Virus record (IMG/VR): IMGVR_UViG_2651869749_000015
DNA length: 21,928 nucleotides
Reading direction: 5' to 3' (one strand)
Origin: a virus
Lineage: Duplodnaviria; Heunggongvirae; Uroviricota; Caudoviricetes
Part shown: positions 7,573-21,928 of the stretch, piece after piece
Layout of the letters: the number at the start of each line of letters is the position of its first letter
Numbering within the stretch: the first letter of the stretch is position 1
Made by a program: the position numbers and the translations under genes
Notes under the pieces: generated by a model
What the model was told of the DNA's origin: nothing
The model's input: only the letters and a program-made list of their open reading frames with translations
The model's database searches: none

Positions 7573-8397
7573 TCAGGCGGTGAAAGTACCAATAAAGGTT
7601 TCTACTTTGCTGTCTTTGAATTTCTCAACAAGCAGATCACGAAATTCGTTAGCCATTTCTTCCTGCACTGCTTCCAGCTGAATAATGCGCAGAACCAGTA
7701 CAGGACGATCGCCAGTGATAATGCTGAGGCGTAATTTAAATGGACGTTCTTTCAGACCTTCAAACGGAACGCATTTAAATTCAAATGCCACTGGCATAAT
7801 ATCTTTGGTCTTCGCTTCGACAGACTCCATCAGGGAGCGTTTGCCGCTGAAGTCATTATCTTCAAAATCAGCGGTCTGGTTTGCTTCAATCGTGATTTTA
7901 CGGACAGCCGCAGCCGCTTTTGTTGCCTGAATAGCGTCACCATTAGCATCAAAGCCCACAAGGTAGTCGGCCCAGTCTTCAATCCATTCTGCCAGTGACT
8001 TCTGGGAGTTACGCTCGCCATTAACAGACAACAGAGCAGAAAACGGTGCTGTCTTTTTTAGCTTGAGAGTGGCGGTGTTATCTGCGTGACCTGGTTCATC
8101 AATAGTACCCAGGTTAAGCACACTGACGGCACGCATATTATCGGCATCGATAAAGCAGCGGGTGCCTTCATCTGCAAGATCTTTAGAATAACGGGTAAAG
8201 TCATCGATGCTGGCAGTGGAAAGCGCACCACGGAAACGGAAGCGATTTAAATTAAATTTTTCCAGATCATGAATGCGGAAATTCTCAGGCAATGCCACAG
8301 CATCGGCACCAATCTTACTGATAATTTCATTAACACCCTGAGCAGAAATAAGGGCATGGATTTGATTAATTGCGGTTGCGTCTAAGTTCTGAGACAT
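7573..8397 (-). CDS. yfdQ: DUF2303-family phage protein (YfdQ-like)
   Basis: 274 aa [24 protein letters not shown]..., which I recognise as the YfdQ-type protein of KplE1/CPS-53-like prophages (from memory). It sits in the conserved position between the YfdP-like and YfdR-like genes. Confidence 0.7.
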
Positions 8398-9527: not shown

Positions 9528-10220
9528 TTAATTGTGTCGCTTAAGGGTTTGTGACTGACTGATTAAGACCTTTCCAAAGACCATAAACCGATGTTCGTTT
9601 TCGCTGGTAATTCCCCATTCGCGGTAAATCTGATTATCAGAAATTACCAGCAGTTTATCAGGTATCATTTGCAGTCGTTTGACGTAAATTTTATCATCAA
9701 AACCAAATACATATATACCATCCCCATCAAACTGATTGATACTGATATCAACGAAGATGAGATCTCCTGGCTCAATGGTTGGACACATACTGTCCCCACG
9801 AACGTTGATAACTTTAATGTGATTTGCTGGTCGTCCACCAAACATCGATACAGCATTATCAGTTCTGTATTCAATGGCATGAATCACATCAATGACATCA
9901 CCGCCCTGGATAAGGCCATTTCCCGCACTGGCACTGACATCCAGCATTTCAATACGGAATACATCCTTCACCTGCGCAACATCCTCACTAATACTGTTTT
10001 TACATACAGTATTACTTTTGAGGTCTGAGGTAAAGAGATCAGCAATATCAACACCTAAGCTCCTGGCAATATTACTCAGGGCTTGTTCAGTGAATTGTTT
10101 CTGCTTACCTGTTTCGAGGCGCGAGATATTCGCCGCATCCACTCCTATTGCTTCAGCGAGATCGGCGATTTTCATGTTCTTCGCCTGGCGAAGTTGTCTG
10201 ACTCGATTTCCTATGTTCAT
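9528..10220 (-). CDS. cI: CI-type prophage repressor, LexA-like autocleavable (N-terminal HTH plus C-terminal S24 peptidase domain)
   Basis: 230 aa. HTH in MKIADLAEAIGVDAANISRLETGK; A-G cleavage-site-like SASAGNG; Ser nucleophile in VRGDSMCPT and Lys in IYVKRLQ. Divergent to cro. Confidence 0.9.
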   Translation of the reverse strand: MNIGNRVRQLRQAKNMKIADLAEAIGVDAANISRLETGKQKQFTEQALSNIARSLGVDIADLFTSDLKSNTVCKNSISEDVAQVKDVFRIEMLDVSASAGNGLIQGGDVIDVIHAIEYRTDNAVSMFGGRPANHIKVINVRGDSMCPTIEPGDLIFVDISINQFDGDGIYVFGFDDKIYVKRLQMIPDKLLVISDNQIYREWGITSENEHRFMVFGKVLISQSQTLKRHN

Positions 10221-10578: not shown

Positions 10579-11122
10579 GCATCACTGGAAAGTGGAAAAA
10601 CAGCCTGAGTGGTACGTGAAAGCTGTCAGAAAAACTATCGCGGTGTTGCCGGGGGGTTACGCTGAAGCTGCTGAGTGGCTGGATGTAACAGAGAACGCTT
10701 TATTCAACCGCCTTCGTGCCGATGGCGATCAGTTTTTTCCGTTGGGATGGGCAATGGTTTTACAGCGTGCGGCTGGTACTCACCACATTGCGGATGCTGT
10801 CGCACAGTCTGCTGGTGGGGTGTTTGTATCACTTCCAGAAATTGAGGAAGTAGAGAACGCCGATATAAACCAGCGCCTGCTGGAAGTCATCGAACAGATC
10901 GGGAGTTACTCAAAGCAGATTCGTTCGGCAATCGAAGATGGGGTAGTGGAGCCACACGAGCAGACAGCAATTAATGATGAGTTGTATCTGTCAATTTCGA
11001 AGCTCCAGGAGCATGCAGCACTGGTCTACAAAATCTTCTGCGCTCCAGAAAAGAGTAACGCCCGCGAGTGTGCAGCTCCGGGCGTCGTGGCGTTTTGTGT
11101 CTGTGGAGAAACTAACGCATGA
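10571..11122 (+). CDS. CII-like regulatory protein (phage 186 CII / CP76-like family)
   Basis: 183 aa. GTG start with AGGAGG upstream, overlapping the cro stop. The pattern ...ALFNRLRADGDQFFPLGWAMVLQRAAG... resembles the 186-CII/CP76-type regulators as I recall them. Confidence 0.5.
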   Translation: MGKHHWKVEKQPEWYVKAVRKTIAVLPGGYAEAAEWLDVTENALFNRLRADGDQFFPLGWAMVLQRAAGTHHIADAVAQSAGGVFVSLPEIEEVENADINQRLLEVIEQIGSYSKQIRSAIEDGVVEPHEQTAINDELYLSISKLQEHAALVYKIFCAPEKSNARECAAPGVVAFCVCGETNA

Positions 11123-13315: not shown

Positions 13316-13806
13316 TCATGAGTCTTTTGAATGAAGTTCAGAAATTCATTGAAGCCCATCCGGGGTGTACTTCCGGAGACATTGCGGATGCTTTTGCAGG
13401 TTACTCACGGCAGCGCGTTCTGCAGTATGCAAGCAAGTTACGTCAGAGTGGGCGTGTGGCTCACCGTTGTGAAGGAGATACACGCAGACATTTCCCGCGC
13501 CTGACTGAGAGAGCGCAGGAGCTGGAACCACAACCAGTTCGTGAAACCAGACCTGTGCGCAATTTCTATGTCGGCACTAACGACCCGCGGGTGATTTTGT
13601 GCCTGACCCGCCAGGCGGAAGAACTGGAGTCAAGGGGCTTATACCGTCGTGCTGCAACCGTGTGGATGGCGGCATTCCGTGAAAGCCACTCCCAGCCAGA
13701 ACGAAACAATTTTCTGGCACGTCGTGAGCGGTGCTTACGGAAAAGCAGCAAGCGCGCTGCATCGGGTGAAGAGTGGTATCTGTCAGGGAATTACGTGGGG
13801 GCTTAA
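13312..13806 (+). CDS. PerC-family-like transcriptional regulator with N-terminal wHTH-like region
   Basis: 164 aa. AEELESRGLYRRAATVWMAAF resembles the GLWRRAA...W motif I associate with PerC/Pch-type prophage regulators (from memory). Coupled to neighbouring genes. Confidence 0.4.
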   Translation: MIMSLLNEVQKFIEAHPGCTSGDIADAFAGYSRQRVLQYASKLRQSGRVAHRCEGDTRRHFPRLTERAQELEPQPVRETRPVRNFYVGTNDPRVILCLTRQAEELESRGLYRRAATVWMAAFRESHSQPERNNFLARRERCLRKSSKRAASGEEWYLSGNYVGA

Positions 13807-14459
13807 TGAGTAATAAATATTGCCGGGCGCTGGTGGAACTGCGGAACAAACCAGCCCATGAACTGAAGGAAGTGGGCGATCAGTGGCGCACGCCGGATAA
13901 CATTTTCTGGGGAATTAACACCCTGTTTGGCCCGTTTGTCCTGGATCTGTTTACTGACGGTGATAACGCCAAATGTACCGCGTATTACACGGCGGAAGAC
14001 AACGCGCTGGCGCATGACTGGTCAGAACGTCTTGCGGAGCTTAAAGGTGCTGCCTTTGGTAATCCCCCATACAGCCGCGCCAGTCAGCATGAGGGGCAAT
14101 ACATCACCGGCATGCGTTACATCATGAAACATGCCAGTGCCATGCGTGATAAAGGCGGGCGCTATGTTTTCCTGATCAAAGCTGCCACCTGCGAAGTGTG
14201 GTGGCCGGAAGATGCAGATCATATTGCTTTTATTCGCGGGCGTATTGGTTTTGAACTGCCTGCCTGGTTTATCCCGAAAGATGAGAAGCAGGTGCCGACA
14301 GGCGCTTTCTTCGCTGGTGCTATTGCTGTTTTCGACAAGACCTGGAAGGGACCGGCAATCAGCTACATCGGGCGCGATGAACTTGAGGCATGTGGTGAGG
14401 CGTTTCTGGCGCAGGTTCGCCAGCAGGCAGAAAAACTGGTCAGGGAGATGGCGGCATGA
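13806..14459 (+). CDS. Phage-type DNA N6-adenine methyltransferase (Dam-like)
   Basis: NPPY catalytic motif (AFGNPPYS). Probable start is the ATG at 13806, overlapping the upstream stop as TAATG; the six-frame ORF begins at 13773. Confidence 0.75.
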   Translation: MSNKYCRALVELRNKPAHELKEVGDQWRTPDNIFWGINTLFGPFVLDLFTDGDNAKCTAYYTAEDNALAHDWSERLAELKGAAFGNPPYSRASQHEGQYITGMRYIMKHASAMRDKGGRYVFLIKAATCEVWWPEDADHIAFIRGRIGFELPAWFIPKDEKQVPTGAFFAGAIAVFDKTWKGPAISYIGRDELEACGEAFLAQVRQQAEKLVREMAA

Positions 14460-16994: not shown

Positions 16995-17011
16995 TTTTGT
17001 GGAGAAAGTTG

Positions 17012-17377
17012 ATGCGTGATATTCAAATGGTTCTTGAACGTTGGGGGGCATGGGTGGCAAATAATCACGAGGATGTCACCTGGTCGTCTATTGCTGCAGG
17101 ATTTAAAGGACTAATCCCTTCAAAAGTAAAATCCCGCCCGCAATGTTGTGACGATGACGCGATGATCATTTGTGGATGCATGGCTCGCCTGAAAAAGAAC
17201 AACAGCGATTTGCACGATTTATTAGTGGATTATTATGTAGGTGGTATGACTTTTATGGCGCTTGCCCGTAAACATGGGCGTTCTGATTGCTGGGTTGGGC
17301 GTTTATTGCAAAAGGCTGAAGGTGTAGTTGATGGCATGTTAATGATGTTAGAAATTGAGCTAGAGATGGATCGTTAG
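17012..17377 (+). CDS. Q: Late-gene antitermination protein Q (phage-82/DLP12 QuuD-like family)
   Basis: [36 protein letters not shown]...[16 protein letters not shown] matches the Q-antiterminator family as I recall it. ATG at 17012 with GGAG 8 nt upstream; the six-frame ORF starts at a TTG at 16997. Confidence 0.8.
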
Positions 17378-17457: not shown

Positions 17458-17904
17458 TTAAGGTTTTAATTCATCAAGACGTTGTTGGATAGTGTTTTTG
17501 CTTGCGTTGTCTGTTATAGACATTTGTTGTACTTGCCCCATTGCCATTTGAGTTTCCATCCACATATCGGCCCACACTTTTGTATCGTTATTAACTTGAG
17601 CGATAGTAAATCTGACTTTTGATACCGGGGTTGTTGAATAGGCATTGCCGATTAACATTTGTCCAAAAACAGCAGAGCCGCCTTCCAGTTCTTTACCACA
17701 TATAACACTGCTGTTATCCGCGTTGTAAATTATCAACCCTCTACTATTGCAGTAATTCACAAGGGCATCTTTGACTTTATCTTTTGTCGTATTTTGATAA
17801 ACCCCCTCAGGTTTTCCTGATTGAGTTTTCTTTATCAATGGTACGGAAGAAGTACAACCTGAAATGATAGTTGCGCTAAGTAATAGTACAGTCATTTTAT
17901 TCAT
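17458..17904 (-). CDS. Lipoprotein of unknown function (AT-rich moron, opposite strand to flanking operons)
   Basis: 148 aa. Signal peptide with lipobox (MNKMTVLLLSATIISGC). About 35% GC by eye versus ~50% backbone. Sits between Q and the putative late promoter. Confidence 0.7.
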   Translation of the reverse strand: MNKMTVLLLSATIISGCTSSVPLIKKTQSGKPEGVYQNTTKDKVKDALVNYCNSRGLIIYNADNSSVICGKELEGGSAVFGQMLIGNAYSTTPVSKVRFTIAQVNNDTKVWADMWMETQMAMGQVQQMSITDNASKNTIQQRLDELKP

Positions 17905-18528: not shown

Positions 18529-19581
18529 ATGAAAAATACTGTGAAAATAAACAGTGTTGATTTAATCAACGCTGATTGCCTGCATTTTATTCAGTCCCTG
18601 CCTGATGATTCCATTGACCTGATTGTTACCGATCCGCCGTACTTCAAGGTGAAACCCAACGGCTGGGACAATCAGTGGAAAGGGGACGAAGATTACCTTA
18701 AGTGGCTGGACCACTGTCTGGCCCAGTTCTGGCGGGTGTTAAAACCTGCCGGAAGCCTTTACCTGTTCTGTGGGCATCGCCTGGCATCTGATATTGAGAT
18801 CATGATGCGTGAACGTTTCAACGTGCTTAACCATATCATCTGGGCGAAGCCGTCCGGACGTTGGAATGGGTGTAATAAAGAAAGTCTGCGTGCATATTTT
18901 CCAGCCACAGAGCGCGTTCTGTTTGCTGAACATTACCAGGGGCCATATCGCGGCAAAAGTGACGGCTATGCGGCAAAAGAAAGGGAACTCAAACAGCACA
19001 TAATGGCACCGCTGATTTCGTATTTCAGGGATGCTCGTGCCGAACTGGGTATAACGGCAAAACAAATTGCCGAAGCCACAGGTAAGAAAAATATGGTTTC
19101 CCACTGGTTTGGTGCCAGTCAGTGGCAGTTGCCGAATGAGGCTGACTATCGGAAGTTACAGGCACTGTTTTCCCGTATAGCGGCAGAGAAGTTTCAGGAA
19201 CAACAACTGGAACAACCACACCACCAGCTGGTGGCATCTTATGATTCACTGAATCGCAAATATTCTGAATTGCTGGATGAGTTTAAATCTCTCCGGCGCT
19301 ATTTCTCCGTATCAGTCTCCGTGCCTTATACCGATGTCTGGATGCATAAACCCGTTCAGTTCTACCCGGGTAAACATCCGTGTGAGAAACCTGCGGATAT
19401 GCTCCGGCAAATAATCAATGCCAGTAGTCGACCTGGTGATCTGGTTGCTGATTTTTTTATGGGATCCGGTTCCACAATAAAAGCAGCAATGGCGCTGGGG
19501 CGTCGGGCCTTAGGTGTTGAGCTTGAGTCAGAGCGGTTTAACCAGACAGTGAAAGAGATAAACGAGCTGGTGGGGAAATAA
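18529..19581 (+). CDS. DNA methyltransferase, beta-class N6-adenine/N4-cytosine type (orphan, no restriction enzyme partner seen)
   Basis: 350 aa. Motif IV DPPY (LIVTDPPYF) near the N-terminus and motif I FxGSGS (DFFMGSGSTIKAA) near the C-terminus. Confidence 0.8.
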   Translation: MKNTVKINSVDLINADCLHFIQSLPDDSIDLIVTDPPYFKVKPNGWDNQWKGDEDYLKWLDHCLAQFWRVLKPAGSLYLFCGHRLASDIEIMMRERFNVLNHIIWAKPSGRWNGCNKESLRAYFPATERVLFAEHYQGPYRGKSDGYAAKERELKQHIMAPLISYFRDARAELGITAKQIAEATGKKNMVSHWFGASQWQLPNEADYRKLQALFSRIAAEKFQEQQLEQPHHQLVASYDSLNRKYSELLDEFKSLRRYFSVSVSVPYTDVWMHKPVQFYPGKHPCEKPADMLRQIINASSRPGDLVADFFMGSGSTIKAAMALGRRALGVELESERFNQTVKEINELVGK

Positions 19582-21208: not shown

Positions 21209-21439
21209 GTAAGAGCAGGCATTACAGCAGCCCTTCACTGAGGGGCTGCGATAATGTGAGGAATAAAAAACCGGCAGGGGAAATCCATTGAAGATTTGCC
21301 GGTGGCAAAAGATGGCCATGCTTTTAACCTTAGTAGCAGAGCTACGGAGTTCAACAACGACCGTCGCCGTTATCTTGCTGAAAGGCGTTTCAATGATTTT
21401 CATCAATTTATTCATCAGCAATGGTGATAATCACTCTCA

Positions 21440-21660
21440 TTTTGGCGGGTCCTTCCGGTGGGGTGGCCTGCCACGGGGCGGGAGCGTCGCGGAAAAAGGC
21501 TAGTTTTTGAAATTTCATTCGTCATCACCACTGCTGTAATTGATTGATATTACAGTAGTTTTATTTTTACGGTGTCGATTTTGATTGTTTTTTGTTCATC
21601 ACTAACACCGTTTGCCTAAAGTTGTTCGCAAGATGCATGTTTAAAACATTCTGGAGCGGG
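21440..21660. other. Putative cos site (cosN-like GC-rich core plus cosB-like region) upstream of the terminase small-subunit gene
   Basis: ACGGGGCGGGAGCGTCGCGG (21472-21491) resembles lambda ACGGGGCGGCGACCTCGCGGG. Downstream TTCGTCAT and GTTTTATTTTTA resemble lambda cosB segments (CTTCGTCATAA, GTTTTTATTTAAA). Spacing from the core to the terminase ATG (~185 bp) is like lambda cosN to Nu1 (~190 bp). Compared from memory only. Confidence 0.45.
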
Positions 21661-21661
21661 T

Positions 21662-21928
21662 ATGGATCGAGAGTTAAAAAATCTGACGCTGAATATCAGT
21701 CAACTGGCGGCACTGTCAGGTGTACATCGCCAGACTGCTGCGGCAAGGCTGCAAAATCTACCCGTTGCAGGGGGGCATGAAAGCAACCTCAAGCTTTATC
21801 GGGTGGTTGATATTGTGTCGGCATTTCTGGCATTACCACCGCCGGTTGCAGAAGGCGAAATGGACGCGCATGAGCGCAAAGCCTGGTATCAGTCTGAACG
21901 TGAGCGTCTTAAGTTCGAACAGGAAACG
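21662..21928 (+). CDS. Terminase small subunit (Nu1-like), 5' partial - runs off the window end
   Basis: ATG at 21662 with GGAGCGGG upstream. MDRELKNLTLNISQLAALSGVHRQTAAARLQNLPVAGGHESNLKLYRVVDIVSAF... has the same architecture as lambda Nu1 (HTH, then GGGKGNEVLYDSAAVIKWY). No stop codon before the window ends. Confidence 0.6.
   Translation, partial: MDRELKNLTLNISQLAALSGVHRQTAAARLQNLPVAGGHESNLKLYRVVDIVSAFLALPPPVAEGEMDAHERKAWYQSERERLKFEQET

Follow-up and report, generated by a model that had tools for sequence, protein, structure and literature searches.

Natural variants of cosN, the nicking site of lambda-like cos regions, have reportedly been surveyed by Vahanian et al. 2017 (Virology 509:140). 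Among the lambda-like phages, cosQ and the CG dinucleotides flanking cosN are invariant, and bp 7-12 of the cohesive end often differ from those of lambda, for instance at positions 9 and 12 in N15 and at positions 8, 9 and 11 in Gifsy-1 (PMC4669245). Lambda cosN is little affected by mutations in its right half, and not at all by C11G; this asymmetry between the left and right halves has been attributed to anchoring of the large terminase subunit (TerL) by the small subunit (TerS) bound to cosB (PMC4669245). In line with this, packaging specificity in lambda-like phages is set by cosB and the DNA-binding domain of TerS and not by the right half of cosN: lambda and phage 21 have the same cosN but differ in cosB and in TerS specificity (PMC4669245). 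An arrangement of the type R3-I1-R2(inverted)-R1, termed a complex cosB, has been described for lambda, 21, phi80 and Gifsy-1 (PMC9026076), and what is known of the roles of R3, R2, R1 and IHF, of the nick positions and of the direction of packaging comes from lambda biochemistry (PMC9026076, PMC4669245). Outside these phages, a putative cos with the sequence GGGCGGCGCGCT has been given for mEp213 and LLS (PMC12315714).

The DNA analysed here (the window, 21,928 nt in all) spans an integrated lambdoid prophage from its integrase gene to cos, and a complete lambda-type cos, consisting of cosQ, cosN and then a complex cosB, was located at 21447-21603. We consider it very probable that this region is the cos of an integrated E. 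coli prophage of the mEp460/phi458/cdtI group and that it works as in lambda. The integrase gene (386-1609) is followed by a cI-type repressor gene on the minus strand (9528-10220) and by the gene for a Q antiterminator (16997-17377), with a CII-like gene, replication genes and a Dam methylase gene between repressor and Q. Downstream of Q lie a second DNA methylase, a P21-type holin, lysozyme, Rz/Rz1, an ORF with an ORF11CD3 domain, cos and TerS, and cos occupies the position that it has in the lambda prophage. This gene order bears on the idea that the site is the cos of a PICI mimicking the cosN of a helper phage, to which we give practically no credence. E. coli PICIs do carry a lambda-like cosN next to an unrelated cosB (PMC9026076); here, however, a complete lysis cassette stands on one side of the site and TerS on the other, in a prophage that has integrase, repressor and Q, and its cosB is co-conserved with the type of the neighbouring TerS. 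A PICI cos would be expected in a small island devoid of lysis and structural genes and equipped with an rpp-type redirecting gene, and what was found was a full lambdoid set of early and late genes.

The cosQ element, the packaging-termination signal, reads GGGTCCT (21447-21453, plus strand); lambda has the same 7-mer, and no variation in it was seen among 17 distinct relatives, in which the DNA immediately to the left of cosQ is hypervariable. The 16-bp cosN is likewise invariant or nearly so in these relatives. Alignment to lambda placed cosN, CG-GGGCGGGAGCGT-CG, at 21474-21489 (plus strand), within the GC-rich core ACGGGGCGGGAGCGTCGCGG (21473-21492). By analogy with lambda, the predicted 5' cohesive end is the 12-mer GGGCGGGAGCGT (21476-21487), and the nicks are predicted at 21475/21476 on the top strand and at 21487/21488 on the bottom strand, positions that follow from lambda and from the boundaries of database records of relatives. 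The original prediction of a lambda-like cos with a variant cosN was borne out by alignment to lambda's joined ends: the 7-bp cosQ, the CG at each nick position, bp 1-6 of the cohesive end and the 12-bp nick spacing are the same as in lambda, as are the predicted length of the overhang and the order of the subsites. The 12-mer departs from the lambda end GGGCGGCGACCT only at bp 7, 8, 9 and 11, which confirms that the core differs from lambda at four positions, all of them within the bp 7-12 segment; the variant is nonetheless a common one. With the right flank included, lambda reads GGGCGGCGACCT CGCGG and the window GGGCGGGAGCGT CGCGG, and to the left of cosN the sequence runs up to ...GGGTCCTTTCCGGTGATCCGACAGGTTACG in lambda and ...GGGTCCTTCCGGTGGGGTGGCCTGCCACG in the window. 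Between cosQ and the position of the top-strand nick there are 22 nt in the window and 23 nt in lambda, and 35 of the 48 aligned columns from cosQ to CGCGG match. A count from the sequence gave 8 two-fold symmetric bp among the 16 of cosN in the window versus 10 in lambda, pairs 2/11 and 6/7 having been lost and pair 4/9 gained. Because the composite signature GGGTCCT-N22-GGGCGG-N6-CGCGG is present in a single copy in the 21.9-kb window (21447-21492, 0 mismatches) and was absent from all of 100 shuffles that preserved dinucleotide composition, also when two mismatches were tolerated, the lambda-like cos is real and far above chance.

A closely similar described cosN is that of Salmonella phage Gifsy-1, whose cohesive end was confirmed by alignment to be GGGCGGCAGCGT and which shares three right-half changes relative to lambda with the window, namely G8A, A9G and C11G (PMC4669245). 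The window 12-mer is the Gifsy-1 end with one extra change, C7G, and the right flank reads CGCAG in Gifsy-1 and CGCGG in the window. Unlike the window, Gifsy-1 has a TerS of the true Nu1 family and lambda-like R sequences. Since the right half tolerates change, the nicking subunit being anchored by the contact between TerS and R3, the cosN allele of the window is a neutral-type natural allele that exemplifies tolerated right-half variation, with no departure from the lambda mechanism. The site illustrates the published rule that cosQ, the nick-flanking CG and bp 1-6 are fixed and that bp 7-12 drift. In the searchable open-access full text, no phage paper was found to print the 12-mer, its reverse complement or the Gifsy-1 12-mer.

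Neither the type of site nor its sequence is new, essentially identical sites being present in published phages and in a large share of E. coli genomes. The same 12-mer, cosQ and flanks were found in the E. coli phages phi458, mEp460, Ayreon, cdtI, Tritos, HannyBb, PhiR47_1 and 606R10. For phi458, a spontaneously induced, plaque-forming phage (PMC9701743), identity over the 629 bp surrounding the site is 98.9%, and it reaches 100% over 21405-21520, a stretch that includes the cosQ-cosN segment. These identities speak against the view that the prophage is defective and the site an inactive relic whose cos is never cut, which we regard as quite unlikely. In its favour, the window stops 89 codons into TerS, with the rest of TerS, TerL and the head genes beyond view, and frameshifted or truncated DUF1441 genes, the family to which this TerS belongs, are common in databases. 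Against it, cos and the 5' part of TerS are 98.9-100% identical to those of the active phages phi458, mEp460 and Ayreon, the late genes that the window covers upstream of cos are all intact, as is each of the conserved cos blocks.

Two of the relatives have records that open at the predicted cohesive end. The GenBank record of phage cdtI (2007) starts with GGGCGGGAGCGTCGCGG... and ends with ...GGCCTGCCACG, which corresponds to the predicted top-strand nick, and the linear GenBank record of phage Tritos opens at the same 12-mer; both records end in ...CCACG. The site marks the conventional start of the virion map, as had been anticipated, with the cdtI and Tritos records starting at GGGCGGGAGCGT, although these starts may themselves rest on the analogy with lambda. 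The cdtI phage paper is reportedly that of Asakura et al. 2007. The Ayreon genome was opened arbitrarily at TerS, and a search for end mapping of any phage carrying GGGCGGGAGCGT found none, the phi458 and Ayreon papers giving none. The records bear on a further alternative, according to which the site is a cos that is nicked away from the lambda-equivalent positions, yielding an overhang of another length or register. Because some relatives have shorter cosN segments (by 2 bp in the Stx/VT1-Sakai-type sites and by 3 bp in one record of an mEp460 derivative), the cosN spacing is not absolutely fixed in this clade, and the TerL of the window clade shares just 25% identity with a lambda-type TerL. 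The window nevertheless keeps both CG flanks at a spacing of exactly 12 (a CG-N12-CG frame), and two independent records, cdtI and Tritos, open at the predicted top-strand nick; we judge displaced nicking to be very unlikely and retain the lambda-equivalent positions.

The gene that follows cos (21662-21928, plus strand) is the 5' part of a TerS gene, 89 codons long and cut by the end of the window, with matches to Pfam DUF1441 (7.8e-19) and to PHROG 141 (1.2e-33), a family annotated as 'terminase small subunit'. It is preceded by a ribosome-binding site, GGAG, at 21653-21656 (plus strand). Counting from 21476, the first base of the predicted cohesive end, its ATG at 21662 starts at base 187, close to the distance of about 185 bp given in the original prediction, and lambda Nu1 starts at base 191. 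All 89 residues are identical to those of phi458 TerS, and the gene after TerS in phi458 encodes a protein with GpA_ATPase and GpA_nuclease domains, that is, TerL, a gene that would lie past the end of the window. The description of the TerS gene as Nu1-like held in one sense and failed in another. The only Pfam family matched by the window fragment, and likewise by the full-length TerS of phi458, was PF07278 (DUF1441); both stayed below the gathering threshold of PF07471 (Phage_Nu1), which the TerS proteins of lambda and Gifsy-1 match at about 1e-100; moreover, BLASTP of lambda Nu1 against the window TerS returned no similarity, and a PDB sequence search with this TerS returned no match. Profile comparisons, by contrast, linked the two families. 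The PHROG cross-matches were reciprocal and nearly full length (phi458 TerS to phrog_57, 8e-10; lambda Nu1 to phrog_141, 6e-8), and hhalign of TerS against Nu1, using small profiles, gave a colinear alignment from the N-terminal helix-turn-helix over 114 columns (E 1e-4, probability 57%). TerS of the window is, on these comparisons, a remote homologue of Nu1 that belongs to a different family, DUF1441; that it works like Nu1 is well supported, and its membership in Phage_Nu1 is unsupported. For the 89-aa fragment, an AlphaFold model was built with 8 close homologues, the search of the protein database having yielded mainly truncated or frameshifted close relatives, so that alignment depth was limited. 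The model has a predicted helix-turn-helix at residues 12-19 and 23-31 (ISQLAALS and RQTAAARLQ), followed by a loop and further helices, at low confidence (pLDDT 66). Foldseek searches of the PDB with this model gave only insignificant, generic helix-turn-helix matches and none of significance to the Nu1 DNA-binding domain.

The DNA between cosN and TerS was compared with 17 distinct cos sites of the same TerS type and with six more diverged cos sites of the DUF1441 type. Directly to the right of cosN lies a 28-bp spacer, GGAAAAAGGCTAGTTTTTGAAATTTCA (21490-21517, plus strand), which is almost invariant in the 17 relatives and which takes the position of the lambda segment that contains the I2 site. 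It is followed by the predicted TerS site R3, TTCGTCATCACC (21518-21529, plus strand; bp 43-54 from the cohesive end), assigned by position and conservation: GTCATCACCAC in this region is invariant in the 17 relatives, and a CAYCAYCA block stands at the R3 position in all aligned cos sites with a DUF1441 TerS. A perfect IHF core, TATCAATCAATTA (21537-21549, minus strand), is the predicted I1 site; perfect matches to the IHF core number only three in the 21.9-kb window, this one included, and a core with 0-1 mismatch on the minus strand at bp 61-76 was present in 11 of the 11 DUF1441-type cos sites examined. The A/T-rich arm of this predicted IHF site, GTTTTATTTTTA (21558-21569, minus strand), is found 8 nt from the core, on its 5' side with respect to the minus strand, and contains TTTTATTTTT, which is near-invariant in the relatives; arm and core are arranged as in strong IHF sites, of which lambda H' is an example. 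The predicted R2 (21571-21579, bp 96-104) is inverted and reads ATCGACACC on the minus strand, one mismatch away from the R consensus TTCGWCAYC. In this region TGTCGATT is invariant in the relatives, and an ATGTCGA block, the reverse complement of TTCGACAT, which is the R1 sequence in 606R10 and the Stx phages, is kept at the R2 position across the DUF1441-type cos sites. The predicted R1, TTCATCACT (21595-21603, plus strand; bp 120-128), is near-invariant in the 17 relatives, and its TGTTC..CA is present in all aligned DUF1441-type cos sites. The R3 and R1 regions form a 24-nt direct repeat. The IHF core, ATTGATAT and TTGTTCATCAC are likewise invariant or nearly so among the 17 distinct cos sites of the same TerS type, and the gaps between the cosB blocks vary among these relatives. 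Across types, the order of the blocks is constant, namely CAYCAYCA (R3), the TTGAT core, ATGTCGA and TGTTC..CA (R1), and the mEp213/LLS-type cos, GGGCGGCGCGCT, resembles the window in TerS family, in the order of the cosB blocks and in the position of the IHF core.

The elements of a complex cosB, that is, R3, a perfect IHF core, an inverted R2 and R1, are accordingly predicted between cosN and TerS. Because R elements are short and degenerate and their consensus is not enriched (10 matches to TTCGWCAYC with one mismatch across the window versus 14.9 expected), we infer R3, R2 and R1 from position, orientation and conservation and not from motif statistics. As predicted for the window, R2 of the lambda cos is inverted, and an IHF site (I1) on the minus strand lies between R3 and R2. 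The R sequences themselves are unrelated, TTCGWCAYC-like in the window and CGTTTCC-like in lambda, the predicted R3 of the window is about 7 bp closer to cosN than that of lambda, and the TerS partner is a DUF1441 protein in the window and a Phage_Nu1 protein in lambda. Two segments, TTCGTCAT (21518-21525) and GTTTTATTTTTA, had originally been called cosB-like. Both are present, and they fall within the predicted R3 and the predicted IHF arm, respectively, but their likeness to lambda is at the level of chance: 54% of the shuffles of the window cosB shared at least one 8-mer with lambda cosB. In lambda, TTCGTCAT lies just outside R3 at bp 67-74, 24 bp further from cosN than in the window, where it is at bp 43-50; GTTTTATTTTTA lies at almost the same distance from cosN as the T-tract of lambda I1. 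A 13-nt inverted repeat bracketing cos (21416-21428 and 21524-21536) was considered as a left-hand TerS site and set aside, because its left arm falls in a hypervariable segment that cdtI has as well, even though the R3 of cdtI differs.

The IHF core is enclosed by a palindrome with 11-bp arms (21530-21559), which was picked up by a terminator scan and by RNA folding and is adjoined by a T-run (21560-21569). Together they might form an intrinsic terminator or RNA hairpin between the lysis and terminase genes in place of, or in addition to, an IHF site, a reading that we consider unlikely. The terminator scan flagged the combination of palindrome and T-run, the folded RNA is stable (dG -15.7 kcal/mol, z -3.2), and 92.7% of the cells were paired across 15 hairpin variants. 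These 15 variants, however, contained no compensatory changes in the 21530-21559 hairpin, no measure rose above the shuffles, and G-C pairs number only 3 in the stem. The other aligned DUF1441-type cos sites lack the palindrome but retain the IHF core, with position and strand unchanged. Furthermore, lambdoid late transcription is Q-antiterminated and necessarily has to cross cos. We treat the palindrome as part of the predicted IHF site or as incidental to it; a terminator or RNA role would be minor and would not exclude IHF binding.

If the site works as its lambda counterpart does, a TerS dimer would bind R3 and the inverted R2 during late lytic growth, host IHF would bend the DNA between R3 and R2 and bring the two together, and R1 would have an accessory role. 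TerS, through its predicted N-terminal helix-turn-helix, would position the large subunit, of the gpA family, on cosN. Two nicks by the large subunit, one in the top strand after 21475 and the other in the bottom strand 12 bp further on, after 21487, would then generate the single-stranded 5' end GGGCGGGAGCGT. The DNA would be pumped into the prohead rightwards, terminase genes first, and on reaching the next cos of the concatemer, cosQ and cosN would trigger the terminating cut. For annotation, the site provides a predicted left end of the packaged genome at 21476, a direction of packaging and an assignment to the mEp460/phi458/cdtI packaging group.

The comparison of relatives also indicated that the left part of cos behaves as a module. 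The spacer is common to cdtI, Tritos and 606R10 up to about bp 33, despite their different cosB and TerS, and from about bp 34 the cosQ-cosN-spacer module is joined to at least three cosB/TerS types, represented by the window and phi458, by 606R10 and PhiR47_1, and by cdtI, Tritos and HannyBb. Relative to the window/phi458 type, TerS identity is about 77% for 606R10/PhiR47_1 and 42% for cdtI/Tritos/HannyBb, and between phi458 and cdtI the N-terminal domains are the most diverged; the TerL proteins of phi458 and cdtI are 88% identical, their C-terminal ~320 residues almost completely so. All three DUF1441 TerS types keep an HR(Q/D)T recognition motif. The situation resembles the pair formed by lambda and phage 21, with a single cosQ-cosN module combined with several types of cosB and TerS N terminus; it differs in that the partners here are DUF1441-family proteins, whose mutual packaging specificities are putative. 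The original prediction had held that the variant core could alter the cohesive ends and the packaging specificity. The predicted end does differ from that of lambda, and the specificity of the window probably differs as well, but the source of the latter would be cosB and the TerS type and not the cosN changes, since one module joins several cosB/TerS types, as in lambda and 21.

We tentatively propose, as a possibility that falls short of an even chance, that window/phi458, 606R10/PhiR47_1 and cdtI/Tritos represent at least three mutually exclusive packaging specificities within the uncharacterised DUF1441 TerS family, which perhaps evolved an R3-IHF-R2-R1 arrangement in parallel to Nu1. If this were true, co-resident E. 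coli prophages, which are common, as up to 7 such sites per genome indicate, could discriminate between, or cross-package, one another's DNA via the cos module. No experimental work on the code by which DUF1441 TerS proteins recognise R sites was found in the literature; such a code would matter for cross-packaging among the lambdoid prophages of E. coli.

The cosN allele of the window is widespread. In a sample, not a census, of IMG/VR made up of the first 120 contigs matching GGGTCCT-N20-25-GGGCGG-N6-CGCGG, the 12-mer was the second commonest allele among the matches listed (21 of 126 sites), after the lambda allele with 65. Among the same listed matches, Nu1-family TerS genes mostly accompanied the lambda 12-mer, and DUF1441 TerS genes accompanied variant 12-mers. 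Of 5426 complete E. coli genomes, 2106 contained the 64-bp cosQ-cosN segment at an identity of at least 90%, with as many as 7 copies in a single genome. In a set with one representative genome per species, the exact 20-mer had seven matches. Four were genuine cos sites, one each in E. coli and E. ruysiae and two in mis-binned MAG contigs; the remaining three had no cosQ and were dismissed as chance matches. Within this one-genome-per-species set, the exact 20-mer with an adjacent cosQ was confined to Escherichia or to contigs evidently derived from Escherichia phages.

The linear record of mEp460_4F5 (LR595868), an mEp460 derivative, starts 5 nt to the left of the predicted nick (locus L004, positions 1–30; the other end of the record is in L020) and lacks 3 bp of cosN, reading GGGCGGGAGCG---CGG. 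The missing bases look like an assembly artefact at physical DNA ends and, if so, would be a hint that the virion ends really lie at the predicted cosN. In the Shiga-toxin-type phages Stx2_112808, VT1-Sakai and 1720a-02 (L011, L012 and L014), the cosN region reads ACG GGGCGGGCGGCG CGG AAAAAGG, and the distance between the conserved cosN flanks is 2 bp less than in the window, so that the spacing or register of the nicks may differ in these phages.

A 13-nt inverted repeat (21416–21428 / 21524–21536, 12 of 13 positions complementary) encloses cosQ, cosN and the predicted R3 roughly symmetrically. The left arm (21416–21428) lies within a segment that is hypervariable among the relatives and that is also present in phage cdtI, despite the different R3 of that phage; judged from these sequence comparisons, the bracketing of cos by the repeat is therefore probably incidental. 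Also to the left of cosQ, at a distance of 10–25 bp, a palindrome resembling a Fur box, GATAATCATTATC, was seen in lambda (L006), mEp213, Stx2_112808, 1720a-02, Eeyore and Kp4865-4, and the window carries it in a degenerate form, TGATAATCACTCTCA, at 21427–21441. To our knowledge, no function has been assigned to this palindrome.

Comparison of the terminase genes of phi458 (L007, 3363–5959) and cdtI (L001, 185–2832) revealed mosaic joints within the genes themselves: the final ~320 residues of the large subunit, TerL, are nearly identical and its N-terminal part has diverged; the small subunit, TerS, shows 42% identity, with the greatest difference in the N-terminal HTH region.

Among other viral contigs and MAGs, the Escherichia-phage cos seen in the window, accompanied by cosQ and by a cosB of the E. 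coli type, was found in two contigs from MAGs labelled Veillonella parvula (L146) and Bacillota (L148), both of which are almost certainly mis-binned phage contigs. Another viral contig, IMGVR_UViG_2574179916_000005 (L040, 11,983 bp), contains three lambda-type cos sites (67–112, 8202–8247 and 10738–10783) with three different cosB types, and may thus be a chimeric assembly or consist of prophage remnants in tandem.

Elsewhere in the window, between Q and the late genes and on the opposite (minus) strand, a 148-aa ORF (17458–17904) had no match in a Pfam comparison; its N-terminus is lipoprotein-like (...LLSATIISGC...), and the ORF looks like a moron-type insertion. The prophage also carries two DNA methyltransferase genes, one of the Dam family in the early region (13773–14459) and one N6_N4_Mtase gene between Q and the holin gene (18529–19581).
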